Source: Candidatus Undinarchaeota archaeon (lineage in GTDB: Archaea; SpSt-1190; JASMDC01). From it: 22,895 nucleotides of DNA. A program made the translations under genes and the position numbers. Where the stretch lies: assembly GCA_964519305.1 (NCBI GenBank), contig CAZFHY010000020.1, forward strand, positions 58,666 through 81,560, written 5' to 3'. The notes beneath the pieces were generated by a model. That model was given only the letters and a program-made list of their open reading frames with translations. It ran no database searches and was not told the origin of the DNA. Shown piece by piece: positions 2 to 22,895 of this stretch; position 1 is the stretch's first letter; each line of letters begins with the position of its first letter.

Positions 2-721
2 GAGGTCATCCGTGGTGTGGACGGGTTCGAGGACCACGGGAACCAGTCCGCCACCGCTCTTGTCACCCAGTCGCTCCAGGTGATGAAGGGCATGCACGAG
101 CACGACGTCTCCCGCACGGACGCCGTGGAGCTCCTACGCGCAGTGGACAGCTTCGAGGACCATGGTGTATCAGGGACTACTCTTGCTACCGAGACCGTCC
201 GCTTCATGCAGGGCATGGAGCAGTACGGGATTGGCCGCACCGACGCCGTGGAGCTCATGCGCGCCGTGGACGGGTTCGAGGACCACGGGAACCAGTCCGC
301 CACCTCCCTCGTTACCGAGACCGTCCGGCTCATGGAGGGTATGGAGAAGTACGACGTCTCGCGCTCGGACGCCATCGAGCTCATGCGCGCCGTGGACAGC
401 TACGAGGATCACGGCAACACATCCGGCACCGTCATGGTCACCGAGTCGGTCCGGCTCATGGAGGCCATGAAGGAGTACGGTGCCTCCCGCACAGACGCAG
501 TCGAGCTCATGCGCACTCTAGACAGCAGCGAGGAGCGTGGCTCGGACAGCGCAACATCCCTCACGGATTCCACCATCAAGCTCATCAAGGTCATGAAGGA
601 GACGGAAACCTCCCGTTCCAAGGCCATCGAGTACATCGGTATCGCCGACAAGGTCAACAGCAGCCAGAGCGCAATATCTCTCGCGGACGAGACGGTGAAG
701 GCGCTGCGGGCACGGGAGTGA
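2..721 (+). CDS. 5'-truncated 42-aa helical repeat protein (paralog of the downstream gene)
   Basis: The frame is open from the window edge (EVIRGVDGFEDHG...), so GTG at 17 is an internal Val. Five visible 41-42 aa units of the form VDxxEDHGxxSxTxLxTETVRLMxxMxxYxxSRxDAVELMRA, then a C-terminal cap. The stop TGA at 719-721 overlaps the next GTG start (GTGA). Confidence 0.85.
   Translation, partial: EVIRGVDGFEDHGNQSATALVTQSLQVMKGMHEHDVSRTDAVELLRAVDSFEDHGVSGTTLATETVRFMQGMEQYGIGRTDAVELMRAVDGFEDHGNQSATSLVTETVRLMEGMEKYDVSRSDAIELMRAVDSYEDHGNTSGTVMVTESVRLMEAMKEYGASRTDAVELMRTLDSSEERGSDSATSLTDSTIKLIKVMKETETSRSKAIEYIGIADKVNSSQSAISLADETVKALRARE
17..643 (+). repeat. Coding tandem repeat, 126-nt unit (one unit 123 nt), 5 visible copies
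   Basis: Units start at 17, 143, 266, 392 and 518. The 39 nt GTGGACGGGTTCGAGGACCACGGGAACCAGTCCGCCACC are identical at 17 and 266. Confidence 0.9.
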
Positions 722-2409
722 CGACGGTGTACGAGCTGGACCTGACGGACGCTGGCTACGGCTCCACAGATGGTGCCGACGGCTACGCCCGGGCCGAGGA
801 TCTCTCCTCAAAGAACAAGGCCGGCGTCGTGCTTACGGCGCTCGGGTTCGGGCTGTTCGGTCTCATCAAGGTCGCTGAGCATGGCAACGAGATGGACGCT
901 GAAGCCGAGCAGGTGGCCGGTAAGTACGATGGTGTCTCTGCCGACCAGGCCGAGTACGTCATGCGACGTGTCGCAGGCTCCTTCGCCATCGACGACGATC
1001 CCACCGAGCTCGCGCGGACGGCCGACAAGGTGCTAGAGAGCGCCACTGAGCACGGCTACACCGGCAGCCACACCGGCTTCCTCCTCGACTACTGCATGGA
1101 CAAGGGCATGGACGTGGACAGTGCCATAGGGTACATGACCGGTGGTGAGGTCACGGACGTGCTCACCACGGCCTACACAGAGGTGGGCCAGCAGGTCATC
1201 GTGGACGCCATCACCAGCAATGCGTCGAAGGTCGCGTCCGCCGAAGAGGCGACGGCCTTCTCCCGCGAGCTCATCGGTCGGCTCGTCCAGGAGGACCATC
1301 TTCCAACACCAAAGGACGTGGCCGGGCTCATCGGCAACATCGCCCGGTACGCCGACACCACACCCACCAGCACCGAGCTCATCGAGGCGGTGAGCGTGCT
1401 GGGCAACACGAGCGCTGCCACGGGCATTCCCATCGACAAGGTGGGGCAAGTGCTCCAGAACCTCGACTACCACAAGGACACCGGCTCCGACGGGGCCATC
1501 GCGCTCGCCAAGGCCACCGCACAGGTTGTCGACGCGGCTCACGAGAACGGCGTATCCATCGACGACGTGAAGGACCTCATATACAAGGTGGACCATTACG
1601 AGGACACGGGCGATGACACCACCGACATCCTCGCCAACAACACGGTCAAGCTTATCGAGGGCATGAAGGCCTACGACGTGTCACGCAGCGAGCTCTCCGA
1701 CATCATGTGGTCAGTTGACCGTAACAACGACACTGGCGGACAGACCGCCGACACAGTTGTGGCCGACACGCTCCGCATCGCCAAGAGCATGCACGAGAAC
1801 GGTATCAGTGAGGACGACGCCACCGACCTCATCTGGAAGGTCGACAGGTACGAGGACACAGGCGGACAGACGAGCGGTCAGGTAGTAGACGCAACAGTCA
1901 AGCTAATGGACGCTATGAAACGCAACAGCGTGTCCAAGAGCGATGTATCCGACCTCATGTGGGCCGTCGACAGGTACGAGGACACTGGTGGTCAGACCGG
2001 AGCGGACGTGGTGGACGCGACCGTGAAGCTCATGGACGCCATGGAGCGGGACGGTGTGTCCGAGGACGATGTCACCGACATCATGTACGCCGTGGACCGT
2101 TACGAGAACACCGGGGGCCAGACCGGCGTCGATGTGGTGGCCGAGACGGTCAAGCTCATGGACGCCATGAAGACCTACGGCGGCTCCGAGGACGACGTCA
2201 CCGACCTTATGTACACCGTGGACCGGTACGAGGACACAGGCGGCGACACAGGTACCACCGTGGCGGACAACACCATCAGGCTCATGGAGGCCGCCCACAA
2301 CAAGGGCCTGAGCCTCGACCGGATGGAGGAACTGGTCAGAGAGGCAGACCACGGCACCTCGGGCCAGACGTCCACCCAAGTGGTCGATGAAGTGCTCAAG
2401 CGTCTGTAG
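718..2409 (+). CDS. Membrane-anchored acidic 42-aa helical repeat protein, 563 aa
   Basis: GTGA overlap with the upstream stop. Hydrophobic segment AGVVLTALGFGLFGLIKVA near the N-terminus. Seven 42-aa units of the type VDRYEDTGGQTGxDVVxxTVKLMDAMxxxGVSEDDVTDLMxA at an exact 126-nt period. Confidence 0.85.
   Translation: MTTVYELDLTDAGYGSTDGADGYARAEDLSSKNKAGVVLTALGFGLFGLIKVAEHGNEMDAEAEQVAGKYDGVSADQAEYVMRRVAGSFAIDDDPTELARTADKVLESATEHGYTGSHTGFLLDYCMDKGMDVDSAIGYMTGGEVTDVLTTAYTEVGQQVIVDAITSNASKVASAEEATAFSRELIGRLVQEDHLPTPKDVAGLIGNIARYADTTPTSTELIEAVSVLGNTSAATGIPIDKVGQVLQNLDYHKDTGSDGAIALAKATAQVVDAAHENGVSIDDVKDLIYKVDHYEDTGDDTTDILANNTVKLIEGMKAYDVSRSELSDIMWSVDRNNDTGGQTADTVVADTLRIAKSMHENGISEDDATDLIWKVDRYEDTGGQTSGQVVDATVKLMDAMKRNSVSKSDVSDLMWAVDRYEDTGGQTGADVVDATVKLMDAMERDGVSEDDVTDIMYAVDRYENTGGQTGVDVVAETVKLMDAMKTYGGSEDDVTDLMYTVDRYEDTGGDTGTTVADNTIRLMEAAHNKGLSLDRMEELVREADHGTSGQTSTQVVDEVLKRL
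1462..2343 (+). repeat. Coding tandem repeat, 7 x 126 nt
   Basis: Units start at 1462, 1588, 1714, 1840, 1966, 2092 and 2218, each encoding [VL]DxxxDTG (one NTG). Confidence 0.9.
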
Positions 2410-7806: not shown

Positions 7807-8535
7807 TCAGTACCGCCCGTACACGTTCGCGTACCCGCCGCGGCCCGCGTAGTACGAGCTCCCCTGGTAGGCGGGGTACTGGTACCCGTAATAGCCGGCC
7901 TGGGCCATGGCGGTAGCTTGTTGCTGCTGCTGGAGAGCCGCCTGCTGTGCGATCGCCCTGCTCCTGGTGAAGAGCGCCAGACCCATGATGAGGACTATGA
8001 TGACCAGCACGATCCCGATGAGGAAGCTCATACTGGAACCTCCCCCGTCGTCCGTGCCACCGCCCGCCGTGGCGGTTGCCGTCGCGGTCGCGGTCCCGCT
8101 GGCCTCGGGACCTTCGGACGGTTCCGCGCTCGCCGTCGCCCCTTCGGCAACGCAGTCCTTCACGACGATGACTATCTCGCGTTTAACGGTGAACTGGGGC
8201 GAAATCGCAGGATAGGCCACGAGGGGGAGCGAGTACCGGCCCGGATCTAGTCCGAGGGGTGGTGTTAGATCGTACCGATGGTCCACGTACTCGGCTGCAC
8301 CCAAGGACACCTTGTAAGGGTTCTTCTTCTGGTAGAGTCCATGGGGATCATCGAGCTTGACAACGAAGATGGCAGGGTCCTTGAGGAGGCTCTCGTACTT
8401 GGCAACGACGCTGATCGTTTCTCCCCGACACCCCGACTGCTCGGGATTCTCAACAACGAGATTGAGGATCTCGAGGGAGGATCCCATGACGAGGAGGAGC
8501 GCAAGCACGACTGATCCCATCCTCTTCATCGACAT
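7807..8535 (-). CDS. Hypothetical single-pass membrane protein (signal peptide, Ig-like domain, Thr/Ala linker, TM, Gln/Tyr/Gly-rich tail)
   Basis: I placed the start at ATG 8535 (MSMKRMGSVVLALLLVMGSS, AAGGGGG SD upstream) rather than the track's 8592, which runs through a TATA box. Beta-rich domain with PGRYSL, linker GTATATATATAGGG, TM FLIGIVLVIIVLIMGLALF, tail QQQQQ...YYGYQYPAYQGSSYYAGRGGYANVYGRY. Confidence 0.75.
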   Translation of the reverse strand: MSMKRMGSVVLALLLVMGSSLEILNLVVENPEQSGCRGETISVVAKYESLLKDPAIFVVKLDDPHGLYQKKNPYKVSLGAAEYVDHRYDLTPPLGLDPGRYSLPLVAYPAISPQFTVKREIVIVVKDCVAEGATASAEPSEGPEASGTATATATATAGGGTDDGGGSSMSFLIGIVLVIIVLIMGLALFTRSRAIAQQAALQQQQQATAMAQAGYYGYQYPAYQGSSYYAGRGGYANVYGRY

Positions 8536-9658: not shown

Positions 9659-9689
9659 TTGGAGCCCGTAGATGCGTAGAGGTAGTGAT

Positions 9690-12600
9690 ATGAGTAGACA
9701 CGGTCTGCTGGTGTTCCGCGGTGCTACTGCACTGCTCCTCACACTCCTCTGTCTCGCCTCAGGATACAAAGGTTACCTCGTCGCGGACAGTATCCTTGAA
9801 TCGGTGGAGGTGCTAAATTTCAAGCACGCCATCATCTCTGTGGATTACGACATGAGCCCGTCGCCCGGATACGTGGACGAGCTCGATGAGCTGGCGCTCC
9901 AGACGCGCTTTGATTTGTTCGACCATACCTACTCGACGATCACGAAACAGGAGGAACTGGTGAGGTTCACCATGGGAGAGGTACCCCGTATCAGTTTCAA
10001 TACGTTCACGATCGAAGGAGAGAGCCTTGAGGTCGAGTTCACGCTCCACTACCGGCCAAAACAGTTCGACCTCATCCCTGGTGTGTTCACCTACGGCAGG
10101 AAGCTGCGTATCACATATCCTTCTCTCTATACATTACGGGTGGCCAACGTCACAGATCTCACACTGGAATCGAACTTCACCCTGGCAGGGCGCTTGGTGG
10201 ACATGGAGGCCTTCGCCCTAAAGTCGTCCGATCAGGGCGACCACATCGTTGGTGACACAATCGGCATCGAGAAGATAGGTGAGGTTTCCGGTAGCCTCAA
10301 GTTCTGCATCGCGGCACTCACGGAACGAGGAGATGACCGACCGGTCGCCAAGGCCTTTGGATCGTCCTGCGAGAAGCTCGTGATCCCCACCGATGGTTCC
10401 ATGGACGCCGTTCTCTATGATCTCCATATAATCGGCGTTCGCGGTGACGCCATGGGATATATCAAACAGGAGTTCAGGCTGGCCGAACCCCCCCTGGCGA
10501 TACGTCTCGTACCAGAGCGGACATCCGTCCGTCTCGGGACCGGTCTCGCACTGGACGTCCACCCGGCACAGCCTTTGGAAGGATGCACGGTGAACGTCTA
10601 TGATTCGTTCTGGACCAAGAAGAACACCCTGGACCTCCAGACATGCACGAACGTGGTCGTGGGTACGTCCACATCGTGGGCGCCCGGCACTTACCTCGTG
10701 GAAGTAGAGGGCTATCACCAGGGACTTGTCGGCCGTGCTACCGCCCGTTTCGAACTGATCGGGGTCGGCGGAATTATGCCCGCGGACACGAAGACCGACA
10801 AGGATGTGTACAAGGCGGGCGAGGATGTCTCACTCTATACTGACGCCCCGGGCGATATCTGCAGCGTCCAGGTTTTCAACCAAGACGGTATCAAAGTGAT
10901 GGAGGAGGAGTCGCTCGGATGTGGCAATGCCGAGCTAAGCCTCGATCCATCGCTCGATCCGGGGGCCTACACGATCCAGACCACGGCATACCGCGACAAT
11001 CAGAACGTCGGCGGTTCGGTTAACATGATCGAGGTTTCGGAGTGGCGACCCCAGCTCCGCACACCGCAGTCAGAAGTGTGCGAGGGCGGTTCCATGCATG
11101 TTCTCGGCGCCACCCTCCCGTGCATCCAAACAGGACAGACCTGCACTCCTTCATCCTCCGACATCCCACTTTGCCTCTGCTTCGATAAGGAGACAGGTGA
11201 CGTCCTTGACGTGTGCGAATACGGAAGATACTGTAGCCCTACCGATTGCACCGAGCAGCGTATCAAGAGCCCGTTCATCATCATCGAGACCGATGGAGAG
11301 TGCATGGCCAAGAGCGGTCTCCAGACGCTCTCATGCATCGACATCGGTGAGGTATGCATGGGTACCTGCGTCTGCCTCGGCAAGGATAAGAATCCCGAGG
11401 CCACCTGCGTTATCGGTGAGATGTGCGCCACTGAAGGATGTGCCCCGTCCAACCTCGAGTTCTCGCTCATCGATCTCGAACCCCGTCATATCAGATCGGA
11501 CGTGCTCCTGACGGATGGGGTTAACGTCATATGGCGCGGGAACATCAGGTACGAGGGGGCGCTTCTCGAGGAGGGAGCTCTCGCTGACCTCAATGTGAAC
11601 GCGTCACTCCACGTACTGGATGCCTCCAGTGCACCCACCATCAAGCGTGTGCACGACGATCAGGCCGGTGGCTGGACGATCGAGGCATCCTTCATAGCGG
11701 ACCTGCCTCCCGGAGAGTACGAGGTCTTCATCGTGATCGAGTACAAGGGCAACATCCATGTCATTCGTCGACCGTTCGAGGTATGGTACCCCGAGGACGA
11801 GTCGTTCCTGCGTGTGAGCCAGCACGATATCGAACCTGACAAGGTGCGTCCCAAAGACTTCGAGATCGGTTTCCCTCTACAAACCGATGTGGTCGTCCAG
11901 GATCTCAACGGAAGGTCCGTGGTGAACCTACCCAAGAAAGCCTTCAACATCACTTTCGGAGAGCTCGCACCCGCAAGCTTCACACCGACGTACAACAAGC
12001 TATCGGACCGCTGGCAGCTGTCGACGACGTTCATGGACACGCTCCTCTTCACCTGGGATGATGTACCTGGCCCAGACAATGGAAAAGTGCGGAGCTATCT
12101 GCGACGCACGTTCGGTGAGGACTGGATGGAGCATGCCGATATCTCCAAGAGCAGTGATGAACGGACCATCACCATGGCATCCGGTAACGATTGGCTCGAG
12201 TTCGCCCTGGACGGGAACAATATCAAGGCCACGGTCCGGACGGACGACGGAGAGGGCCATGAGCTTGCCGTCCGTGAAGAGATGGATCGCCTGATCGTAT
12301 ACACCGCACTTCCTACCGAACAAGCCATCTCCGTAGCGATCGAGCACCTCGGGCGCAGCGGGAACTCGAAGGAGCCAATCGAGGTGACGGACTACGTTCC
12401 ACTCGACTTCAGGATACAGCGAGCTAGTCCGGGTAACGACAATGAGCCGCTCATCCATTATCTGGCCGTGATGGGCTTCAATCTCGACATATTCCTTCAG
12501 ATCAAGGGGACCATCGATGTCTCCGAACGTAACTTCCATGTGTTCATCGGGGAACGGAACGTTACAGAGAACCTGGCCTATCTTGTCAGCACGACATCAG

Positions 12601-12770
12601 GTGTCAGGCTGCATCTTTCTGACATCTCTCTATGCCCTCATCCACCGAACGGCGGTAGCACGGTGGAGCTGCTCGTTGAGATCCATACCCCACAAGGAGT
12701 CATCGAATCGAAGCGGACGGACCTCCAAGTGAAGTCCAATCCCGGTCGATACGTGGTGGGATGCACATGA
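9690..12770 (+). CDS. Large secreted multidomain surface protein (~1026 aa; Ig/MG2-like domains, two Cys modules, inserted domain)
   Basis: Signal peptide (ATALLLTLLCLASG). Ig/MG2-like motifs TDKDVYKAGE, PGTYLVEV, PGAYTIQT and PPGEYEV. Duplicated Cys module at 11079-11441. No C-terminal TM. Confidence 0.8.
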   Translation: MSRHGLLVFRGATALLLTLLCLASGYKGYLVADSILESVEVLNFKHAIISVDYDMSPSPGYVDELDELALQTRFDLFDHTYSTITKQEELVRFTMGEVPRISFNTFTIEGESLEVEFTLHYRPKQFDLIPGVFTYGRKLRITYPSLYTLRVANVTDLTLESNFTLAGRLVDMEAFALKSSDQGDHIVGDTIGIEKIGEVSGSLKFCIAALTERGDDRPVAKAFGSSCEKLVIPTDGSMDAVLYDLHIIGVRGDAMGYIKQEFRLAEPPLAIRLVPERTSVRLGTGLALDVHPAQPLEGCTVNVYDSFWTKKNTLDLQTCTNVVVGTSTSWAPGTYLVEVEGYHQGLVGRATARFELIGVGGIMPADTKTDKDVYKAGEDVSLYTDAPGDICSVQVFNQDGIKVMEEESLGCGNAELSLDPSLDPGAYTIQTTAYRDNQNVGGSVNMIEVSEWRPQLRTPQSEVCEGGSMHVLGATLPCIQTGQTCTPSSSDIPLCLCFDKETGDVLDVCEYGRYCSPTDCTEQRIKSPFIIIETDGECMAKSGLQTLSCIDIGEVCMGTCVCLGKDKNPEATCVIGEMCATEGCAPSNLEFSLIDLEPRHIRSDVLLTDGVNVIWRGNIRYEGALLEEGALADLNVNASLHVLDASSAPTIKRVHDDQAGGWTIEASFIADLPPGEYEVFIVIEYKGNIHVIRRPFEVWYPEDESFLRVSQHDIEPDKVRPKDFEIGFPLQTDVVVQDLNGRSVVNLPKKAFNITFGELAPASFTPTYNKLSDRWQLSTTFMDTLLFTWDDVPGPDNGKVRSYLRRTFGEDWMEHADISKSSDERTITMASGNDWLEFALDGNNIKATVRTDDGEGHELAVREEMDRLIVYTALPTEQAISVAIEHLGRSGNSKEPIEVTDYVPLDFRIQRASPGNDNEPLIHYLAVMGFNLDIFLQIKGTIDVSERNFHVFIGERNVTENLAYLVSTTSGVRLHLSDISLCPHPPNGGSTVELLVEIHTPQGVIESKRTDLQVKSNPGRYVVGCT

Positions 12771-14689
12771 GCCGAAAAATGACACGAGGACAGATTGCCC
12801 TCTTTGGCATCATGGCCTTGGCTTTCGTGGTCATCTTCGTGCTCTATACGATGTTCTCTGGACAGAAGACGGAATCGGAGGTACGTCGACAGGAGATACA
12901 ATCGGAAACGGTCCGCAAGGAGCTCGAGTCCGTGCAGTCCTCTCTGGAGCGCTTCCTCGAAGCCGCTATCCACGAGGCAGCGGAGGAGATGGCCGCGCAC
13001 GGAGGTTATACCAAGGAGAACCATCCGCCGCTCAGCCATCTGGGCGTCCCCTACTGGTTCTATGAGGGGAATATCGTTAACATCCCGACAAACAAGGTCA
13101 TGGAACAGATGATGGTACAGGAGATCGAGCGCAATGTCAAGGACCGTGTCCTTGAACTGCAGAAGAGCCTGCGCAGGGACCTCTATTCCTTCGGGTTCCC
13201 AAAGGCGAACGTCACCCTCCTGGACAACTCAATCACGGCACGAATGAGCCTTCCGGTCCGCATCAGAGCAGAGGGTGAGGAAGTCAAGACCGATATCGAT
13301 TTCGATGTCAACGTACCGCTCCGGCTCAAGTTCCTGCACGACATCGCAGTATTCTATGTTCAGAGCTATATCGATGCCCGGACCATGGAGGACTCAATCT
13401 TCGACAGCATCACTTCAGACCCGCGCATCCCCAAACCGGGAGGTGACTGCTGTAAGGGCATCCCCTCATGCGATGCAGATGCCCGATACGAGATTAGTGT
13501 GATATCGACCGATGGGAATCCCCTCTCAAAGCATGGGGACCTCATCGAACCGTTCCGTGAGCATTCCCGACTGGCCGTGGCTAACGAGATGCGTCGTGTA
13601 AGGAAGGCCGACTTCAGTCCGGTTGAGACGTTCACCGGGATGGAACAAGCGGATATCGAGAAGGTCATGGAGTTCGTGGAGTGGACCTTCGACCTGTATG
13701 AGAACGAGTTCAAGTTCTCCTTCATCGCCAATGAGGACAAGCCTGATTACCGGTCCACCGACACAGTGCACTTCTTCAGGCTCGGACCCTTCGGCCTGTC
13801 ACCTTCGGGCGATTGTACGGGCGGGTACAAGATGAACTATTCCATCCACTTCCCCGTAAAGATCATCCTTCGTGATCTCCTGCCTTCTGCAAAAGTGGTC
13901 GGCGCCGCCGGGACATCGTCCGAGATCAAGCCACTGGAGTTCAAGTTCTACATGGAACCATATCTACAGAAACTGTCCGCAGCGACAAACGAGTCGGTCT
14001 CAGCACCCAAGTTCATCGAGGACCAGTGTCAGGGCGCCTGCGCCCTTACAGTGGACCTCGACCCCCCTGCGATGGAAGGGTTGCTCCGGATCGACTCCTG
14101 TCGCTATCCTTCTAACGATGTTGAAATGAGCTATTCCTCGGGAACTACCTGGGAGGGAGTCCCATGCGGCGTCCATGACATCGTGTTCGAGGCAGACGGG
14201 ACCGAGTACGCGAGATCGAGCCTGAAAGAGAAGATCGAGGCTTCAAGTCATGTCACCCTCCCCGTACGTAAGTTCGGCTCCATTTCGAGCCGTGTGATCA
14301 TGAAGAACTACGTCTACTGTGTGTCATCTCAGACAATTGATGAACGGGAACCGATACCTCTCGGCTATGTCGATGGGAGACCGCCGGCGTACATCGAAGT
14401 GTACCTCTTCCCCATGGACACTACCCTTGGGGACGTCGTCAGTGCAATAACCGACGAGGACGGAAAGATCGAATTCCCAACCGTGAACCCCGGTAAGTAC
14501 CTACTGCTCGCGGTCTCGTCCAAGGATAGCTCGGACCGCGCCATCTACTCGGTCCTTCCGAAGGGCATGATCCTCGATGTGGACGAGGGTACGAGCTCGC
14601 TCCCGGACATCGCGATGAAACCAATCACGGTGGAGCTCGACCGGAACGGGATATACCACAATGTAGCATCCCGTGATGAGAACTGTTGA
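12767..14689 (+). CDS. Class III (pilin-type) signal peptide protein, ~640 aa
   Basis: ATGA overlap with the upstream stop. MSRKMTRG/QIALFGIMALAFVVIFVLY fits the archaeal prepilin-peptidase pattern. Followed by a helical stalk, GGY...VPYW.YEG...IPT...ME, and a C-terminal prealbumin/carboxypeptidase-regulatory-like segment (TDEDGKIEF..VNPGKYLL). Confidence 0.75.
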   Translation: MSRKMTRGQIALFGIMALAFVVIFVLYTMFSGQKTESEVRRQEIQSETVRKELESVQSSLERFLEAAIHEAAEEMAAHGGYTKENHPPLSHLGVPYWFYEGNIVNIPTNKVMEQMMVQEIERNVKDRVLELQKSLRRDLYSFGFPKANVTLLDNSITARMSLPVRIRAEGEEVKTDIDFDVNVPLRLKFLHDIAVFYVQSYIDARTMEDSIFDSITSDPRIPKPGGDCCKGIPSCDADARYEISVISTDGNPLSKHGDLIEPFREHSRLAVANEMRRVRKADFSPVETFTGMEQADIEKVMEFVEWTFDLYENEFKFSFIANEDKPDYRSTDTVHFFRLGPFGLSPSGDCTGGYKMNYSIHFPVKIILRDLLPSAKVVGAAGTSSEIKPLEFKFYMEPYLQKLSAATNESVSAPKFIEDQCQGACALTVDLDPPAMEGLLRIDSCRYPSNDVEMSYSSGTTWEGVPCGVHDIVFEADGTEYARSSLKEKIEASSHVTLPVRKFGSISSRVIMKNYVYCVSSQTIDEREPIPLGYVDGRPPAYIEVYLFPMDTTLGDVVSAITDEDGKIEFPTVNPGKYLLLAVSSKDSSDRAIYSVLPKGMILDVDEGTSSLPDIAMKPITVELDRNGIYHNVASRDENC

Positions 14690-14873
14690 AACGGATATAT
14701 TTCCGCCTATTTGTACAATAGAGCAATAATTTTATTATTGGGACGACTTGGGACAACTTCCGCCTGATTAATGGGGCGAGCAATCTGAATGAACTATCGT
14801 GGCCCGTTGTCCCAAGCCGTTGCGAGAAATCGTTTTAAACGCCATAAGCAGAGTATATTACAGGGGTTTATCA
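14690..14873 (+). promoter_or_regulatory. AT-rich regulatory region upstream of the giant gene
   Basis: GAAATCG-TTTTAAA (TATA at 14833-14839), an AGGGGT SD before ATG 14874, inverted repeat CAATAAT-TTT-ATTATTG, and direct repeats (see findings). Confidence 0.55.
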
Positions 14874-17800
14874 ATGGGATTCAGTACCAATCGAACAAGA
14901 CATACCTACGCACTATTCATGGCGTTCGTGCTCTGTGCGCTTCTCACATTGGCGACGAGCACCGCAGAGGACGACATGGGTGCGTTCATTTGTGAAGAGA
15001 CAATCGAAGACACGCATCTGAGTATCTTCTGCTATCATACGGAGACCGCCTCTACGATCGGTATCTTCGTCAAGGTGGACGACGCATTTATCGCGGATTT
15101 CCTTTGCGATAAATCCAAGTTAACGTCCGACGAGACTCCAGAAGCGGATTATTGCTGGAGTTCCACGATCGGGAGAGCCACCGTAAAGATACCATTCACT
15201 GCGTACGACGGTAAGCTCGGTAAGCTGAAACTATTTGGCGACCGTGCGGGGAACGCCCCCGACTCTTCCTTGAGCAATCTCAAGACCTATTCATTCGATA
15301 TTACGAAACCAGAGGAAACTGCGGAAGAAGAGGAGACAACCCCTGAATCCCCGACACCCCCGCAGAACATTGAAGCCTATACGAGCAGGTGCACGGACAA
15401 GGTCTTCATCGGTAAGGAATTCACCTATACGTCCGGTAATCCCACTGAAAGGGAAAGAGCAAAGGAGGAAGCCCTTCAATATGCCAGGGACCACTGCCCC
15501 GACTACTGCAAGAAGGGACGACTGGCGGTTTTCGATTACGGGACCGATCCCCCCTACTTCAAGGGACTTCAGGCCTGCTACGACCCCCGTATCTGGGAAC
15601 CCGCTGGCGGCATTGACAGGGACGACTCGAAGGGGACGGATGACGCGGCCCTCGCCGAGGTCAGTGCAAAAGAGATAGAGAGTTGTAAGGCTCTATGCGA
15701 GCAGGTCTATTCAGACAAGGCTGCTACATTGTTCACGCCTTTGATCATGAACTTCCAGCGAAAGGAGGATGTCAACGGCCCCATCAGGTTCGGGTGCTTG
15801 TGCCAGTTCCGATCATGCTCCTGCTGTCACATCCCCGGTAACGATAACTACCCCTATCGCTGGGTCAAGGATGTGGGCACATGCACCGGGGACACTTCAA
15901 ATAAATACGGCCCCGGCCACACCGTCGATCCCAATCTCTGTACGGACGCACCTTTCCACGAGGATAATGAAGGGACATGCGCATTGCCCCGTGCTGTGAA
16001 GCCCGACTGTCTCCACTGCTGCAACAAGGGGACCTCGGATGATCCTGTGTACGACTGGTTGCCTACATCATGTGCTGCAGATGGGTACACGGATGCCGCA
16101 TCCAGGATGGACTGCTGCGAGACCCAATCCAGTGACGGTCTGTCGTGCACCACGTGGAAAGATGCCTCGGGATGCAACGTCATCGAGGATCCTGACACCT
16201 ACACCCTCAAAGGGAAGGTATGTTGCAGGGCCCACGGTGACACCTATGCATGGCTGGACATCGATCCGGACGCCGGTATCACCTGCCCGCTATCGGAACG
16301 GGCTGCAGATCAATCATTATGTGGTCCCAGTGACGACAGTATGGCGTGCTGTGTGCTCAGGAAGGACGACAACACGGCCGATTTCCAATTAATGAGCCGA
16401 GAGGAATGCGCTACCAAGCTCGAGGGCGAGACGGGGGTCATGTTCTCCTCGGAGTACTGTGAGCTAGACATCACGGGTACATGTCAGGGTGACCAGGACC
16501 TGCCGAAGGTCTATCTAGCGGCCATTTATGCCGACGACTGCAAGGACGGCTCTGACGAGCGCAAGATAGAGTGTTATCAGGGTGGATCCGGTTCTACCTG
16601 CGAGACAGTTGAGGGTCAGAACCTCGCCTCCAAGGTGGATCCCGACGAGAAGGCCGAGCTCCGCATCACAGGTGGTAAGAAGGATGATAACGATTGTCAG
16701 GTCACGCTGGTCATGAGCTTGACCGAGCCATCAGATAATGCGGTCCCGGAGTCAGGTATCTGCGATGGTGCCCGCACGTTCGGTGGACACTGTTACAAGA
16801 TGACCGATAAGCTGGAATGGCCCGCTGCGAAATCGAAGTGCGAGGCGTGGAACGCTCATCTCGTGACCATCGACGATGCGCTGGAGAACGAGTTCATCAA
16901 GAAGACGTTCGCTGAGAACCTCTGGATCGGTTACAATGACCGTGAGCAAGAAGGGCGATATGTCTGGACTACGGATCCGGCGACCGGTGACCTACCCGCA
17001 GTCTGTAGCGACGGCTACTTCTACAATGGTCACTGCTACAAACCCATATCGAACACCGATTGGGACGACGCAAAGACCACGTGCGAAGCATGGGGTGGTT
17101 ACCTCGCGACCATCGAGGATGCGGACGAGAACAAGTATATCATGGACCAGTTCAATCAATATACATACAAGTGGATCGGCCTGAACGACAAGACCACTGA
17201 GGGCACATGGGCATGGTCACACGGTGCATCAGATTATCGGAACTGGAAGAACGGCGAACCGAACGACCATGATGGCAACGAAGACTGCATTGAGTTAAAG
17301 GGAGCGGGCAAGTGGAACGACGCGAAGTGCACGAACAAGCATGGTGCGATCTGCGAGTCCGACGGACCCCCGAACACGAACAGGCTCTATTCGAACTGGA
17401 ACAATCACGAGCCGAACAACTGGGGACGCAACGAGGACTGTAGCCAGATCTATACCTCCGGTCTCTGGAACGACAACAATTGCGACCATGATTTCAAGGC
17501 TCTCTGCGAGTCGGAGGATGGTGGTGATCCCGGCTATGTCCTGCGGGTGTTCTTCGCGAACGAAGATGTGAAGGCCGATCAGTACGATGTCGATCCATAC
17601 ACCATGACGATCGCCTATCTCAGGCTCCTGGAGCACCGGCCATCCGCGGAGAAAGGATGCCTCGGGTGCAAGGTCAAGCATGTATACGATGGCGGATTCA
17701 GCGATCCGAACGATGATGATACGACCACCAATGGTATGAAGTATGAAGTGTGCATCTCACCGGATCCCGATCTAACCAGTGGTTGTGACAGGGATGCCTG

Positions 17801-20800
17801 TATCACGCAACTCGAGGGCTTCCTTGGTGATGAGCTCATCAGTATCGAAGCTGGAGCCGCGGACAACCTCAGGATATTCAAGGTCAAGAGCTCGATCCTT
17901 AAAATCGGCGAATGTTCCTTGGACCAGGACGTCATTGGCGAGGATATAGACCACATCACGATAACTGACTATGAAGGTGATGCCGAGCAGAAGACGATCG
18001 CCAACAGGCTCGACAAGATCAAGTGCAAAGAGGGTGGCATCCCGGCCAAGAACAACTTCGCGGACTACCTCAAGGAAGTGAAGACCTTCCAGGAAGGTGC
18101 CCACGAGTTCTACACCGACCTGCACGCCAACCTCATCACGATGCTGGACGCTCTGGAGAAGCAGTGCGACTCATGCAACACTGCGCTCACGGATTTCCTT
18201 GGCACTGGTTACACTGCCTCTGAGAGCACGGGGCAGCAGCAAATCCCCTCGGGTGTTAAGATCAATATCGACGATGTGGAGATCGAGTTCACCTTCGGCA
18301 CGGCCGTCGACCTGGACGACCTGCCAGACAAGGACTCCGAGGACAACGACTTCAACTGCAAGACGGCATTGAAGAACAAGGGCTATCAGAACTTAGTGTT
18401 CTTCCGGACCAAGAACACGAACGATGTCAAGGGATACATGAACAAGAGCAGTACATCAATTCACATCGACCTTGCTCCGGGTGGCACTGATTCGGGCGTC
18501 GCTTCAACCGGTTGCGACTTCACGCGTGACTCCTATGCCTGGATCACATCCGATCCCCCCAGTAGCACCTCCACAGATGTCCCGTCGGTCTGCAGCCCCG
18601 GTGAGTTCTGTGCATGCGATGCGGACCTCGGTCTGGAGACCTATATCACAGAGGACTTCGTAGCCAGTGACGCGTTCGGCCCCGGACTCTGTCATAGGGG
18701 CGTCCAGGAGATCTGCCTAAAGGACAGCCTGACCTTTTGCCCCGCACGGGAAAGCGATATCACGGCCCGAAGTGAGGAGCTAGCCACTGCGATGGGATGC
18801 CCCGTCTGCATCCAGATACCGTGCGTTGCAGGAGTGAAAGTATGGGATGGAAATACAGGCAGCTTGACCTGTGATTCGAACGAGATGAACGAGGAGGACG
18901 ACGGTACAGAAGGGAGTTGTTGTGACACTGATGCTACCGATCCTGACAAGTACGTCTGTTCAGCGCCCGCTGTACCTGACGCGTCCAAGGACCTTGGGTA
19001 CGCAGGAGCGACGAGCAACTGCGCCCTCCCGACCGTTACCGATGACTGTCGTAAGTGCACAAATCCCTGTGACGACGGCTGCTGCGGCTACTGCACCAAC
19101 GATGAGACCGATACGAAGTCCGGTGTGCTCGAGGTCAAGTACCGCACCAACGTCGCCATCGTTCCCGCCAAGCTCGTGGAATGTCAGCAGCAGGTCTCCG
19201 ACCTCAAGGACCTGTGCACGGTTGACGGCGCCGAGGACCTGTACGACGGGATCAAGGCCGGCCCGTGTCGCACGCGGGACACCGTCCAGAACGTCGTCAC
19301 CACGCTCAAGAGCCTCATGGACAAGCTTGCGGAGGGGATCGTCGCCATCGACGCCCTCATCGTGGAGTACGACGGATCCACGACAGAGGATGGGAACGTA
19401 GTGAGCGATAAACTCTCTACCCTGAATGAAAAAATTTCCGATATCGCTAACACCGGCGCATCCGATTTGTTCCGCAAGAACCTCAAGAACTCGGTCGCCA
19501 TGGTCGACAGGATCATCACGGACACTGATGACAAGAACGAGCAGGGTACGGTGACACAGTACCAGGGCATCGAGTCGATCGGGGCAGGGACCGCGGACTG
19601 GAAGTTCAAGGACGAATGCCCCGGCATCATCGACCGGTACCTAGAGCTCGGCTACTCGGGCGACTGTGCTTACAAACCCAAATACCATCTGCCCGAGGAG
19701 CGCGACGCGCTAATCGAACCGTTCTATGAGAATGTACTACAGTACCTCACTGGCCAGCCTGCGAGTTCAGGCCCTCAGCCCTATGCCCGGGACTCCCGGT
19801 GCATCATCGACAGCACCATCACCAGCGACAAGCCGATCGGCCGGTGCGAGATGGGCGGAACCGAGGACAAGACCATCGACGACCAGCAGTTCGATGACTG
19901 GGGCACGAAGCAGGACACTGCGCTGAGCAAGCTCAACGCTATCGACTCTTCGACCACACCAATCCAAGACAACACGCTCCTCTACGAGATCCACCAGTCG
20001 TGCATGTCCTATACGACGACGGGCGGTCAGACCATCACACCTGACACGGACGACGACGTCGATACCGACACGGACACCGACACGGATACTGATACGGACA
20101 CAGATACGGATACGGACACCACCACGATGGGTGTCGGCCAAGGGTGCAACAGGAACAGCGACTGCCCCTCGGGCAACTGTATTAACAGCATCTGTTGCGC
20201 GAACGGTAAGTACTGCTGTCTTTTCGACAGTCAATGCTCGATGTTCGGTACCGACGCCAAGTGCGATTCGAACACATTCTACTGTCGTATGACCGTCGGT
20301 GGCAGTGCATGTCCGTGCGCCGCGAAGATGGACGATGGTGGCGACTGTGACAATAACGATGAGTGCAAGAGCTCGAACTGTAGGAACAACATCTGCTGCA
20401 AGCGTCACGAGCAGTGCTGCGATGGCCCGCAACACTGCGCGACGTCCTCCGGACGGATATGTGGTGGGGATAACTACTGTATAACCGATCCGGACTACAT
20501 CGAGGACGGTTCCTTAGACAACGGTGATCCTTGCACGGACCCGAACCACTGCTTCAGCCGTAACTGCAAGAACGGTATTTGTTGCTCGACCCTCGGTGTA
20601 TGCTGCTCGTCGAACTCCCACTGCCTCGAGAACCTGGGCGAGGTGTGCGACCAGTCGCTCCATTTCTGCATCACTCCCGAACCGACGCCTCCTGAAGAGG
20701 ACCCGAGCACCGATGAGTACTGCGCTGCGTTCTGTCGCAACTCGTGCGATCCCAGCTACAGCGAAGGCCGGTGCCATGTAGAGCTCGGGTACTGCGTCTG

Positions 20801-22763
20801 CAACATAGGTTTCGGGTGGAAGGGTACGAGCCAGAAGTGCGATCCTCCAGAACTGCCCGCTGACGTGAAGAACAAGATGCTCGCGTGCTGCAACAACCTC
20901 TTTGACTTCGATCCTGACACGCCGGGCCTGCCGATCTTCGATGTCCCATCCAATCCATCGTGCGCAAGCGCCGGGGTCTTCGGTGATGGGAAGGTGCACT
21001 TCGACAAGTGCAGATCCAAGTACTCGGAGCTGAACAATTACTGCTGTTTCCAGGGCGAGAGGGAACTACCGCTCACCGAGAAGTGCTACAACATGGACCA
21101 GTACGCGACATGCAGAAGGGCCTGTCAGGACATCTACCCGTCGAACGTGGACGCGTGCGAGACCGCATGCAAGGAAGCGAACATCGACTGCGAGAAGGCC
21201 TGCCTCGAACCGCCCATCCCACAGGACACTGCAACCCGCCTCAAGTGCATGAAGGGCGGGATCACCAGCATGCCTGATTGTGGGGCCAACGATAAGGTGT
21301 ACAATAAGATAATCGGGTGCTTCCAACGTAGCCCCAGCACGTATTCCTTCGACGAGAACGTCAAGTGCGCACAAGCCATGAAAGGGATGCTACCGCGGTT
21401 CACCATATCGAAACTGGGGGTCTACAAGGACGATATCGCCCAGACCACGGTCTATGGCGGTGACGTGGCGGCCGTGAAGGCCGACATCACCAATGCGGGC
21501 GCTCTGTTCTTCAGTGGACGGGTCACGTTCGGAGTGATCGTACTGCCACCATGTCCCGAAGAAGGATGCAACGAGGAGGACTACATCGAGTACTTCACCC
21601 TCGGTACGAACCCGATGGACAACACGATCGACCTCCTCCCTGCGGCCACGGTCGCTCTGGAGAGCGAGCCATTCGACATTGATCCGTCCTGGATAGGTAA
21701 CGAGATATGGGTCATACTGGGCGTTCGTGACATTTCAGGTGCCATCGGTGATTATGACTCGGCGACGGGCGTCAAAGTGCTCAAGATGGGCGTCATCGCA
21801 CCAACGGATGCGTTCTTCAACGATGAGCGGATCATCACAGCTTACCCGTTCCAGGAAGTGACCGGTCACGTGAAGCTCGTGTCCGAGTACTTCCCGCTCA
21901 AGGCCGAGGTCTACCTGACCGACACGAACAACCGCGAGATCGAGGGCACTCGTGTAGCGCACGAGTTCTCGGCCAAGATCTCGGATGAGGTCATCATAAA
22001 GACCAATGCGTTCACGGTGCCCAAAGAGTACGCCTACTTCGGCAACATCCTGCGCATCGGGTTCGAGGCCTTCGACAAGGAAGACCAGCTCGTGGCAAAG
22101 TCCATCCTCTCCACACCGGTGATCTGCGAGACATGTCCGGAAGACTACATCAACGTCCAGATGCAGTATCCCGACGCCTACCTGAAGGTCGAGAACCCAG
22201 AGCTCAAGGTGACCAGCGCGAACTTCATCGACGCGGACGGCGAGCACATCCCAGCGACAGGTCTCTACCAGAGACGGGACGTCAGGGCCCAGGTCACGGT
22301 GCGCAACTCTGTGGACGTGGTCTTCGATGGGACCGTGAAGGTGACCGTACTGGACGAGTCGGGGACCGCGATAACGGCCACCACAGCGGACCTCAAGGAC
22401 AATACGCTGGCCAAGGACGGCAAGTACACGATCACGACCGACGCCTTCCTTGCCGAGGAGGGACACTCGTACAAGACTCTGGTGCACGCGATCGCGGACG
22501 ATGTGGACTGGTTCAAGCGGCAGCTGTCGCGGATCACCTATCCGTACGCGGTGCTGGACGTCCAGGACCTATCCACTGTTCAGGGTGAGGGTCCCAAGGA
22601 CTACACCATCACCTATGCACTGGGGACCTGTGTGCTGCGTGTTGAGTGCACCGCTTGTCTGCCCACCTGCGAGATCCTGGTGGACCAGCCGACGTGCACG
22701 TTCCGCTCAGAGGGCGTGTGCGATCCGCCCGGCGGCACCTGCTCCTGCATAGCGGCAGCGTAA
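14874..22763 (+). CDS. Giant secreted Cys-rich protein with C-type lectin domains (~2629 aa), putative adhesin
   Basis: Uninterrupted 7.9-kb ORF. ATG 14874 gives a signal peptide (RTRHTYALFMAFVLCALLTLATSTA); the track start at GTG 14799 lies upstream of the TATA. Contains CTLD motifs (GHCY, WIG, EPN, WND), a DT tract, Cys repeats and C-terminal beta-sandwich-like domains. Confidence 0.9.
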   Translation: MGFSTNRTRHTYALFMAFVLCALLTLATSTAEDDMGAFICEETIEDTHLSIFCYHTETASTIGIFVKVDDAFIADFLCDKSKLTSDETPEADYCWSSTIGRATVKIPFTAYDGKLGKLKLFGDRAGNAPDSSLSNLKTYSFDITKPEETAEEEETTPESPTPPQNIEAYTSRCTDKVFIGKEFTYTSGNPTERERAKEEALQYARDHCPDYCKKGRLAVFDYGTDPPYFKGLQACYDPRIWEPAGGIDRDDSKGTDDAALAEVSAKEIESCKALCEQVYSDKAATLFTPLIMNFQRKEDVNGPIRFGCLCQFRSCSCCHIPGNDNYPYRWVKDVGTCTGDTSNKYGPGHTVDPNLCTDAPFHEDNEGTCALPRAVKPDCLHCCNKGTSDDPVYDWLPTSCAADGYTDAASRMDCCETQSSDGLSCTTWKDASGCNVIEDPDTYTLKGKVCCRAHGDTYAWLDIDPDAGITCPLSERAADQSLCGPSDDSMACCVLRKDDNTADFQLMSREECATKLEGETGVMFSSEYCELDITGTCQGDQDLPKVYLAAIYADDCKDGSDERKIECYQGGSGSTCETVEGQNLASKVDPDEKAELRITGGKKDDNDCQVTLVMSLTEPSDNAVPESGICDGARTFGGHCYKMTDKLEWPAAKSKCEAWNAHLVTIDDALENEFIKKTFAENLWIGYNDREQEGRYVWTTDPATGDLPAVCSDGYFYNGHCYKPISNTDWDDAKTTCEAWGGYLATIEDADENKYIMDQFNQYTYKWIGLNDKTTEGTWAWSHGASDYRNWKNGEPNDHDGNEDCIELKGAGKWNDAKCTNKHGAICESDGPPNTNRLYSNWNNHEPNNWGRNEDCSQIYTSGLWNDNNCDHDFKALCESEDGGDPGYVLRVFFANEDVKADQYDVDPYTMTIAYLRLLEHRPSAEKGCLGCKVKHVYDGGFSDPNDDDTTTNGMKYEVCISPDPDLTSGCDRDACITQLEGFLGDELISIEAGAADNLRIFKVKSSILKIGECSLDQDVIGEDIDHITITDYEGDAEQKTIANRLDKIKCKEGGIPAKNNFADYLKEVKTFQEGAHEFYTDLHANLITMLDALEKQCDSCNTALTDFLGTGYTASESTGQQQIPSGVKINIDDVEIEFTFGTAVDLDDLPDKDSEDNDFNCKTALKNKGYQNLVFFRTKNTNDVKGYMNKSSTSIHIDLAPGGTDSGVASTGCDFTRDSYAWITSDPPSSTSTDVPSVCSPGEFCACDADLGLETYITEDFVASDAFGPGLCHRGVQEICLKDSLTFCPARESDITARSEELATAMGCPVCIQIPCVAGVKVWDGNTGSLTCDSNEMNEEDDGTEGSCCDTDATDPDKYVCSAPAVPDASKDLGYAGATSNCALPTVTDDCRKCTNPCDDGCCGYCTNDETDTKSGVLEVKYRTNVAIVPAKLVECQQQVSDLKDLCTVDGAEDLYDGIKAGPCRTRDTVQNVVTTLKSLMDKLAEGIVAIDALIVEYDGSTTEDGNVVSDKLSTLNEKISDIANTGASDLFRKNLKNSVAMVDRIITDTDDKNEQGTVTQYQGIESIGAGTADWKFKDECPGIIDRYLELGYSGDCAYKPKYHLPEERDALIEPFYENVLQYLTGQPASSGPQPYARDSRCIIDSTITSDKPIGRCEMGGTEDKTIDDQQFDDWGTKQDTALSKLNAIDSSTTPIQDNTLLYEIHQSCMSYTTTGGQTITPDTDDDVDTDTDTDTDTDTDTDTDTDTTTMGVGQGCNRNSDCPSGNCINSICCANGKYCCLFDSQCSMFGTDAKCDSNTFYCRMTVGGSACPCAAKMDDGGDCDNNDECKSSNCRNNICCKRHEQCCDGPQHCATSSGRICGGDNYCITDPDYIEDGSLDNGDPCTDPNHCFSRNCKNGICCSTLGVCCSSNSHCLENLGEVCDQSLHFCITPEPTPPEEDPSTDEYCAAFCRNSCDPSYSEGRCHVELGYCVCNIGFGWKGTSQKCDPPELPADVKNKMLACCNNLFDFDPDTPGLPIFDVPSNPSCASAGVFGDGKVHFDKCRSKYSELNNYCCFQGERELPLTEKCYNMDQYATCRRACQDIYPSNVDACETACKEANIDCEKACLEPPIPQDTATRLKCMKGGITSMPDCGANDKVYNKIIGCFQRSPSTYSFDENVKCAQAMKGMLPRFTISKLGVYKDDIAQTTVYGGDVAAVKADITNAGALFFSGRVTFGVIVLPPCPEEGCNEEDYIEYFTLGTNPMDNTIDLLPAATVALESEPFDIDPSWIGNEIWVILGVRDISGAIGDYDSATGVKVLKMGVIAPTDAFFNDERIITAYPFQEVTGHVKLVSEYFPLKAEVYLTDTNNREIEGTRVAHEFSAKISDEVIIKTNAFTVPKEYAYFGNILRIGFEAFDKEDQLVAKSILSTPVICETCPEDYINVQMQYPDAYLKVENPELKVTSANFIDADGEHIPATGLYQRRDVRAQVTVRNSVDVVFDGTVKVTVLDESGTAITATTADLKDNTLAKDGKYTITTDAFLAEEGHSYKTLVHAIADDVDWFKRQLSRITYPYAVLDVQDLSTVQGEGPKDYTITYALGTCVLRVECTACLPTCEILVDQPTCTFRSEGVCDPPGGTCSCIAAA
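16761..17510 (+). other. Two C-type lectin domains, one nested in the other
   Basis: Outer N-half at 16761-16976, complete inner CTLD at 17004-17357, outer C-half at 17388-17510. Confidence 0.9.
20061..20120 (+). repeat. (Asp-Thr)10 coding microsatellite (GAYACN)
   Basis: Ten hexamers GAY-ACN with varied third codon positions. Confidence 0.95.
20145..20669 (+). repeat. Three 10-Cys protein repeats
   Basis: Pattern C-x5-C-x4-C-x4-CC-x5-CC-x5-C-x7/8-C-x5/6-C occurs three times (CNRNSDCPSGNC..., CDNNDECKSSNC..., CTDPNHCFSRNC...). Confidence 0.9.
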
Positions 22764-22788
22764 GAAAGGGGTCATATGAAGGGGGTTC

Positions 22789-22821
22789 CCTCCGGGCGGG
22801 CCGACAGGGCCCGTCCGGGGG
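22789..22821 (+). terminator. GC-rich stem-loop downstream of the giant gene (terminator or 3' stability element)
   Basis: CCTCCGGGCGGGCC-GACAG-GGCCCGTCCGGGGG forms a 14-bp stem with two G-U pairs, 25 nt after the stop. There is no U-tract on the plus strand. Confidence 0.4.
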
Positions 22822-22895
22822 ATGACAATAAATAGTTCTCGGTACAGAGCGAGTCCGAGAAGTGCCCGTCCATGCCGGGTGTTGAGCGCACCCCA

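Follow-up and report, generated by a model that had tools for sequence, protein, structure and literature searches.

A C-type lectin-like domain nested within another one in a giant cysteine-rich protein of an Undinarchaeota archaeon

In a stretch of 22,895 nucleotides of contig CAZFHY010000020.1 from a Candidatus Undinarchaeota archaeon (the window, whose positions are used throughout), we observed that the forward strand encodes, at 16761-17510, a complete CTLD (C-type lectin-like domain) lodged between the two halves of another CTLD. This segment is free of stops; its translation gives the 250 residues on which the initial annotation was made, and these are residues 655-904 of a giant protein encoded by a single open reading frame (ORF). 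In our opinion the segment is probably a nested two-CTLD lectin module carried by a secreted, cysteine-rich giant protein. The ORF and the parts of the module are the following, N1 and C1 being the N-terminal and C-terminal halves of the outer CTLD.

14799..22763, + strand: giant ORF of 2654 codons from a GTG, with 160 cysteines, in which the CTLD module is the sole recognised domain
16761..16976, + strand: N1, the outer CTLD N-half, with beta0-beta1-alpha1-alpha2-beta2, the 'RYVW' strand and three cysteines
16977..17003, + strand: outgoing linker PATGDLPAV, nine residues, variable (18-44% identity among orthologues)
17004..17363, + strand: inner, complete long-form CTLD, with six cysteines, EPN at 17256-17264 and WND at 17313-17321
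17364..17387, + strand: return linker GPPNTNRL, eight residues, conserved (G, P, P, T and R invariant in the orthologues)
17388..17510, + strand: C1, the outer CTLD C-half, with YSNW, EPN at 17409-17417, NEDC, WND at 17466-17474, beta3-beta5 and three cysteines

The three pieces of the segment were compared with the Pfam family Lectin_C (PF00059), the curated cut-off of which is 22.6 bits, and each of them scored above it. The piece with N1 (16761-17003) matches positions 2-60 of the 107 positions of the profile (E = 6e-10, 40.3 bits), the inner piece (17004-17363) positions 3-106 (E = 6.3e-24, 85.2 bits) and the piece with C1 (17364-17510) positions 64-106 (E = 3.4e-9, 37.8 bits). A six-frame search of the 3.63-Mb assembly with PF00059 gave 2-60, 3-106 and 61-106 for the same three stretches and no further match genome-wide. 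With an independent hidden Markov model (HMM) made from 300 other CTLDs (126 positions), N1 covers 8-80, the inner unit 5-126 and C1 82-126; profile columns are neither lost nor repeated between the two outer halves. Since each of the two partial matches complements the other and lies well outside chance expectation, the nest, i.e. a full CTLD between the two halves of another, is confirmed. The order N1-N2-C2-C1, and not a tandem pair, had been read from the letters in the initial annotation, and the outcome of the Pfam search, one full match and two complementary halves, is the one it had predicted for a HMMER check. We thus have a continuous insert between complementary parts of one parent domain, within one ORF, and the same situation is found in three orthologues.

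The exact place of the break differs from the one first proposed. The outer domain had been thought to stop where its long loop begins; we found the break instead further inside that region, in a hairpin turn between the EGxYVWTTD strand and YSNW. N1 ends in ...WIGYNDREQEGRYVWTTD and C1 starts with YSNW, the matching continuous stretch of the inner unit being ...WIGLNDKTTEGTWAWSHGASDYRNW. The insertion point, between 'RYVWTTD' and 'YSNW', is about 10 residues past the place where the long loop leaves the core, and the insert with its 9- and 8-residue linkers takes the place of the hairpin turn 'SHGASD' inside the outer long-loop region. In the CTLD fold, the N- and C-terminal strands lie side by side and pair with each other. 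Because these strands are adjacent, an insert can enter and leave through one turn with the host undisturbed. N1 would supply beta0, beta1, alpha1, alpha2, beta2 and the WxW strand, C1 would supply the YxNW segment, the Ca2+/sugar loop and beta3-beta5, and the complete long-form CTLD, with six cysteines of its own, would be spliced into the outer hairpin turn. In the numbering of the 250 residues, the cysteines of the inner unit are C82, C92, C108, C176, C190 and C198, with a WIGL motif, and those of the outer unit, which has a WIGY motif, are Cys1, Cys11 and Cys27 in N1 and C227, C241 and C249 in C1. An odd number of cysteines in N1 and in C1 is what is expected if the alpha1-beta5 disulfide bridges the halves; such a pairing would follow the known CTLD pattern.

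The same 250-residue arrangement is present in the genome of a congener (G001), with 72% identity and in an ORF of 2684 codons. A word-indexed search with the whole protein (6161 candidates) returned three full-length orthologues, P0152 from this congener (76% identical), P0081 (64%) and P0153 (50%). All three have the order N1-[CTLD]-C1, and their 250-residue segments are 72, 54 and 55% identical to that of the window. The alignment of the four proteins shows no change at any of the 12 cysteines, of which N1 and C1 have three each and the inner unit six, nor in EPNN, NEDC and WNDN of the outer unit or in EPN, E and ND of the inner one. The identities between the window and P0152, P0081 and P0153, in this order, vary from part to part.

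N1: 96, 67 and 57%
Outgoing linker: 44, 33 and 18%
Inner unit: about 56-58, 41 and 47%
Return linker (GPPxTxR): 88, 75 and 88%
C1: 76, 56 and 59%

A misassembly had been named in the initial annotation as a possible source of the unusual order, and this check was run. The contigs of four runs (two studies) each span 16500-17800 in one piece, with 0 differences, no joints and no loose ends. As these four bridging runs may be the source of this DNA, it is the three orthologues, coming from other assemblies, that provide the independent check, and both lines of evidence speak against a misassembly. Other searches delimited the distribution of the module. In an exhaustive search of representatives, single-stretch matches to module residues 1-250 were limited to P0005, a fragment of the same protein, and P0081. 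When the 250-residue segment was used in a word-indexed search of proteins of 137-438 residues, 4 of the 42 candidates matched, with 40-48% query coverage, and no short nested form was found among them. A metagenome scan with the 4-sequence alignment and two very specific patterns gave one locus, L008, which has no ORF of at least 80 residues and probably represents eukaryotic exons, and in the ESM Atlas we found ordinary CTLD clusters only.

The residues EPN, Glu and WND define the Ca2+-dependent site of mannose/GlcNAc/fucose type. The presence of EPN and WND in both units, already noticed in the initial annotation, holds at the positions listed above. The ligand set consists of E166, P167, N168, E174, N186 and D187 in the inner unit and of E217, P218, N219, E225, N237 and D238 in the outer one; in both, the E of EPN is followed at a distance of 8 residues by the Glu, and this Glu at 12 residues by Asn-Asp, a spacing which we take to be that of rat MBP-A. 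Judging from these motifs, both units would bind Ca2+ and sugars with equatorial 3-/4-OH groups (Man, GlcNAc, Fuc, Glc). Because the whole set is kept twice, the module may act as a two-site lectin head that gains avidity from two glycan epitopes.

We also compared the rates at which the two units evolve. Against the congener, the Nei-Gojobori method gives for the outer unit a nonsynonymous divergence (dN) of 0.064, a synonymous divergence (dS) of 1.16 and a ratio omega of 0.055 (0.036 for N1 alone), and for the inner unit dN = 0.318, dS = 1.48 and omega = 0.21, these omega values being rough because dS is near saturation. In windows of 100 residues along the whole gene, identity to the congener is between 49 and 96%; among the more divergent windows are the two with the inner unit (701-800, 67%; 801-900, 66%), and N1 alone (96%) equals the best window. 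On these comparisons, both CTLD units are seen to be under purifying selection, at very different rates, the inner one evolving about five times faster. The slow-evolving outer unit would be a constant site or a pedestal and the fast inner unit a tip by which specificity is tuned.

For structure prediction, the module was aligned by MAFFT with 39 whole proteins from the searches, mostly multi-CTLD (40 rows, about 35 rows per column); in the result, N1 is matched by the N-half of one repeat, the inner unit by the repeat that follows, and C1 by a C-half from further along. With this alignment, AlphaFold2 (AF2) gave a mean predicted local distance difference test (pLDDT) of 92.7 and a predicted template modelling score (pTM) of 0.71, the five models ranging from 91.5 to 92.7 in pLDDT. 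The values are 88-98 in N1, 89-98 in the inner unit and 92-98 in C1, and are low only at the linkers (66-80 for the outgoing one and 67). In the DSSP assignment, each element of the outer unit has its counterpart in the inner one (E68-69/E151-152, E213/E162, H221-223/H170-172, then beta3, beta4 and beta5). The inner unit (model residues 78-203) superimposes on 9qy1, the second carbohydrate-recognition domain (CRD) of Endo180, with Z = 22.3 and a root-mean-square deviation (rmsd) of 1.2 Å over 122 residues, and on ASGR, CD23, CL-K1, DC-SIGNR and others with Z = 19-21 and rmsd 1.2-1.8 Å, and therefore has the CTLD fold in the model. A pTM of 0.71 would be out of reach for one 120-residue body in a chain of 250 residues, so that the model sets most of both units in one frame. 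This hints at a fairly fixed geometry between them. The rigid bivalent head imagined in the initial annotation is in part sustained by this pTM and by the conserved return linker GPPxTxR, and in part weakened by the pLDDT of both linkers (66-80).

Several results weigh against the two-site lectin reading, or against the model of its outer unit. When the alignment is reduced to the four orthologues alone, the mean pLDDT of AF2 falls to 48.7. In the larger alignment, different repeats of multi-CTLD animal proteins fill the N1 columns and the C1 columns, and for this reason the outer-unit model draws on profile likeness and network memory and not on covariation. The best 50 of 672 and the best 50 of 48,161 chains in the VIA structure comparison are inner-unit alignments or rigid-body mixtures with an rmsd of 13-15 Å, and are thus uninformative on the outer fold. 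The near-saturation of dS mentioned above belongs here too, as does the inner unit of P0081, in which VND is found in place of WND. The two outer halves were also given to ESMFold2 as separate chains (N1, residues 1-76; C1, residues 205-250). They scored 0.55, which counts as weak support, the best of three controls being at 0.00, and reached the pairing mark, which is reached by 58 of 80 solved complexes and by 2 of 110 mismatched pairs; however, 0.55 falls in the band of 0.60 or below, to which 7 of the 80 solved complexes and both passing mismatches belong. Contacts are shared between runs to at least 96%, with a partner pLDDT of 63 or more. This pass may reflect the likeness of halves of a textbook fold to solved CTLDs. 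On this indirect evidence, N1 may pack on C1.

Other explanations of the module have to be weighed. It is rather unlikely, although it deserves attention, that only one unit is a working lectin and that the other, most likely the outer one, is a rigid pedestal in which EPN and WND are kept for Ca2+-dependent folding. The insert sits within the outer long-loop region that builds the sugar site, and could distort or shade this site; in addition, conservation is much stronger in the outer unit than in the inner one, which would suit a scaffold. Such a pedestal would nevertheless have kept E217, N219, E225, N237 and D238 invariant in four orthologues whose segments are 54-72% identical, which exceeds what fold stability usually demands. 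Alternatively, N1 and C1 could pair between chains by a three-dimensional domain swap, the split outer domain being an oligomerisation device like that of the snake-venom CTLD dimers. We hold this to be quite improbable: the monomer model is confident throughout, with its pTM of 0.71, and the termini of CTLDs are known to be close together, favouring closure within one chain, even if a swap would be favoured by the shortness of the linkers (9 and 8 residues) and by the variability and low confidence of the outgoing one. Loop-swapped CTLD dimers do exist (snaclec review PMC6468738), and 1iod is among the structure matches listed.

These listed matches also include type II antifreeze proteins (2zib, 2py2), ovocleidin, lithostathine and NK receptors, and the inner WND of P0081 is without its Trp; both observations would suit a module that, as many CTLDs, binds a non-glycan ligand (protein, mineral or ice surface, lipid), EPN and WND then being misleading. 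The best matches listed are, however, sugar-bound CRDs (Endo180 CRD2 with methyl fucoside, ASGR, CD23 with GlcNAc-Man and CL-K1), and both units have the full Ca2+ ligand set with canonical spacing, which CTLDs that do not bind sugars usually lack. We give a non-glycan ligand a slim chance. Finally, the DNA comes from a metagenome bin with an estimated contamination of 4.29%, and the nest could be an artefact, either of a chimeric assembly or in the sense that an insertion destroyed a domain of which N1 and C1 are the decaying remains. The identical order in three other assemblies at 54-72% identity, the contigs of four runs which bridge both junctions without difference and the omega values of 0.036 for N1 and 0.055 for the whole outer unit leave this explanation with practically no weight. 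We retain the reading of a probable nested two-site lectin module.

A Pfam scan of the whole giant protein gave Lectin_C alone, in three stretches, and the remainder, cut into 7 pieces, had no credible match in Pfam or NCBIfam. The ATG at 14874 is a likelier true start than the GTG, since it is at Met26 that the N-terminal alignment of the orthologues begins. One further feature starts at this ATG.

14874..14966, + strand: probable signal peptide or N-terminal anchor (MGFSTNRTRHTYALFMAFVLCALLTLATSTA), with hydrophobic residues 35-53 on the Kyte-Doolittle scale and a putative cleavage site

From its secretion-type N-terminus, i.e. this hydrophobic segment, and its 160 cysteines, the giant protein is predicted to be secreted. 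It would be one of numerous giant proteins that this archaeon places outside the cell, an adhesin-like protein, at the surface or secreted, most likely serving adhesion to glycan-bearing cells or particles in seawater. Its C-terminus ends in ...CDPPGGTCSCIAAA. The last ~330 residues (window 21600-22760) are nearly invariant among orthologues that are 50-77% identical overall, and in this C-terminal part the proportion of synonymous differences (pS) from the congener is 0.21-0.32, against 0.4-0.8 elsewhere in the gene. The conserved part could be an anchoring or assembly module, or the result of a recent exchange.

The archaeal host proposed in the initial annotation is well founded. The assembly contains a full-length archaeal small-subunit rRNA (1508 bits) beside an archaeal large-subunit rRNA, and the best matches of PdxS, encoded on the same contig (6187-7080, - strand), are archaeal with 71-73% identity, all of the best 50 listed being archaeal. 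PF00059 is present in 3 of the 151 archaeal genomes searched, this genome and that of the congener included, so that CTLDs of the canonical EPN type are rare in archaea. The two genomes of the genus measure 3.6-3.8 Mb, against 0.6-1.2 Mb for 15 genomes of the same class searched; the genus is a large-genome lineage next to a DPANN group of small genomes. In the 3.63-Mb genome studied here, 58 stop-to-stop ORFs have at least 1500 codons, the largest having 8478, and many of the giant ones are extremely rich in cysteine (e.g. 639 Cys in 4178 codons and 348 Cys in 5262 codons). Two genes precede the giant gene.

9672..12770, + strand: protein of 1032 residues with an N-terminal hydrophobic segment and 25 cysteines, of no known family
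12761..14689, + strand: protein of 642 residues with an N-terminal hydrophobic segment, of no known family

A comparison of both with Pfam, NCBIfam and PDB sequences gave nothing credible. In the congener (G001:C29), they lie directly 5' of the orthologous giant gene, with 91% (1032 residues) and 92% (642 residues) identity. They form a paralogous two-gene cassette: tblastn gives 14 and 12 hits in the genome, own copies counted, which make up 11 adjacent pairs (in 7 cases next to an ORF of at least 1500 codons), and in the congener the two genes match 44 and 29 places. The products of the cassette may help to export or to anchor giant surface proteins. The CTLD region was also considered as the target of a diversity-generating retroelement, and this was rejected: no direct repeat of at least 25 nucleotides tied to it was found in 14000-22895 and no reverse transcriptase family in the 11 upstream ORFs, the rest of the genome not having been searched for reverse transcriptases. 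Near position 8000, the G+C content drops from about 63% to 53-58%, at the start of a cluster with a helix-turn-helix/DUF7343 gene, these two orphan genes and the giant gene. Elsewhere in the window, the ORF at 718-2409 (+) has weak matches to phage tape-measure and minor-tail families (PhageMin_Tail, 33.4 bits for a cut-off of 33.2; TMP_3, below its cut-off).

Concerning the origin of the module, the top sequence matches are multi-CTLD proteins of amphioxus, crinoid, acorn worm and sea star, with domain-level identities that reach 43-51%; the archaeal module is 35-48% identical to CTLDs of marine deuterostomes. A eukaryotic source of the archaeal CTLD is plausible. The nearest non-orthologous N-halves of N1 are those of inner units (45-49%), but unrelated CTLDs reach 45%, and C1 has no preference. 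An internal duplication as the origin of the nest is thus weakly favoured, from the comparison of the N-halves only.

The literature search, in which subscription journals and supplements were outside the scope, returned no description of nested or permuted CTLDs or of Undinarchaeota CTLDs. The initial annotation's remark that such a topology had not been seen described may stand in this respect; as a claim of uniqueness it is too strong, since other sequences have similar layouts. Among 152 other CTLD proteins scanned with the CTLD HMM, one, P0056, has the pattern of a full domain between an N-half and a C-half. It is a complete ORF in a protist transcript cluster of five (three MMETSP assemblies and two JGI contigs), and its nest (residues 119-483) has three levels: N(119-183), N(187-250), full(250-371), C(374-428) and C(433-483). 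P0056 and the archaeal protein have in common the nested halves, the complementary profile coordinates and the 3+3 cysteines of the split halves; the innermost unit of P0056 is without EPN and WND, whereas the archaeal inner unit has both. We consider the protist nest an independent event because its halves break right after WIGFxD (HMM positions 69/71), about 10 residues upstream of the archaeal break (80/82). A conserved intron site of animal CTLDs is placed 'downstream of the WIGL motif' in PMC514892, and the break of P0056 is close to it. In two animal multi-CTLD proteins, P0004 and P0066, stretches of 135 and 54 residues, not recognised by the CTLD HMM, interrupt CTLDs where the long loop starts; these stretches may be other inserts at the same region.

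A different rearrangement is found in a distant archaeon with a genome of 1.0 Mb (G059). The locus L107 (G059:C1:381493-384621, ORF from 1411) encodes a circularly permuted CTLD: a signal peptide is followed by the C-half (YTNW..EPS..NEEC..WND..ICE; Pfam positions 67-106), a linker of 11 residues and the N-half (Pfam 2-62), which ends in GGGWGWS. As in the nest, the chain is opened at the WxW | YxNW hairpin, and here the 11-residue linker joins the natural termini; unlike the nest, L107 is a single domain without insert, has EPS and not EPN, and belongs to a different protein of a distant archaeon. The cut at the same hairpin suggests that the WxW | YxNW turn is a permissive site of the CTLD fold. 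The same genome also has a lone CTLD N-half in an ORF of 8891 codons.

Three rearranged forms were found: a nest of two levels and a circular permutant in archaea, and a nest of three levels in a protist. The self-nested topology of canonical CTLDs is conserved in the archaeal lineage and has arisen at least twice. To our knowledge, CTLD multivalency has always been described as tandem arrays or oligomers; a CTLD nested in its own homologue, if true, would add a third means of holding two sugar sites within a single rigid body. The nest would also mark a loop position that tolerates an insert of 120 residues, useful for the engineering of CTLD scaffolds. Being 35-48% identical to marine-deuterostome CTLDs, the module bears on gene flow between marine eukaryotes and archaea, and likewise on how an unusual archaeon, with its 3.6-Mb genome and 58 ORFs of at least 1500 codons, interacts with other cells. 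More speculatively, and with doubt prevailing, the opening of CTLDs, either in the WxW|YxNW hairpin or close by, where the long loop begins, could be a recurrent, unrecognised route to multivalent heads of fixed geometry; an animal-like EPN lectin from marine eukaryotes would here have been rebuilt as a two-site 'scaffold plus variable tip' receptor by which a large-genome relative of the tiny Undinarchaeota grasps eukaryote-type glycans.

Compared with known systems, the module is closest to the canonical Ca2+-dependent CRDs (CRD2 of Endo180/uPARAP, MRC1, MBP-A, CL-K1, DC-SIGNR), with which it shares PF00059, the six-cysteine long form, WIGx and EPN...E...WND; the inner unit is 30-36% identical to them, with an rmsd of 1.2-1.6 Å. 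These CRDs are single or in tandem (N-C, N-C), whereas in the archaeal module one domain is interrupted and hosts the other; they belong to animal receptors, and the archaeal module to an orphan protein of 2654 residues. With the snake-venom snaclecs, the archaeal nest has in common that the long-loop region is a plastic element which leaves the body of the domain. In snaclecs, two chains swap this loop, with loss of the Ca2+/sugar site; in the archaeal nest, a whole domain is inserted within one chain and, as far as the sequence tells, EPN and WND are retained in both units. Split domains hosting inserts, for example split PH domains, are also known, the insert being usually of another fold. 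The archaeal nest resembles them in that a discontinuous parent would fold around a continuous insert, but differs from them in that parent and insert are homologous, 45-50% identical in both halves.

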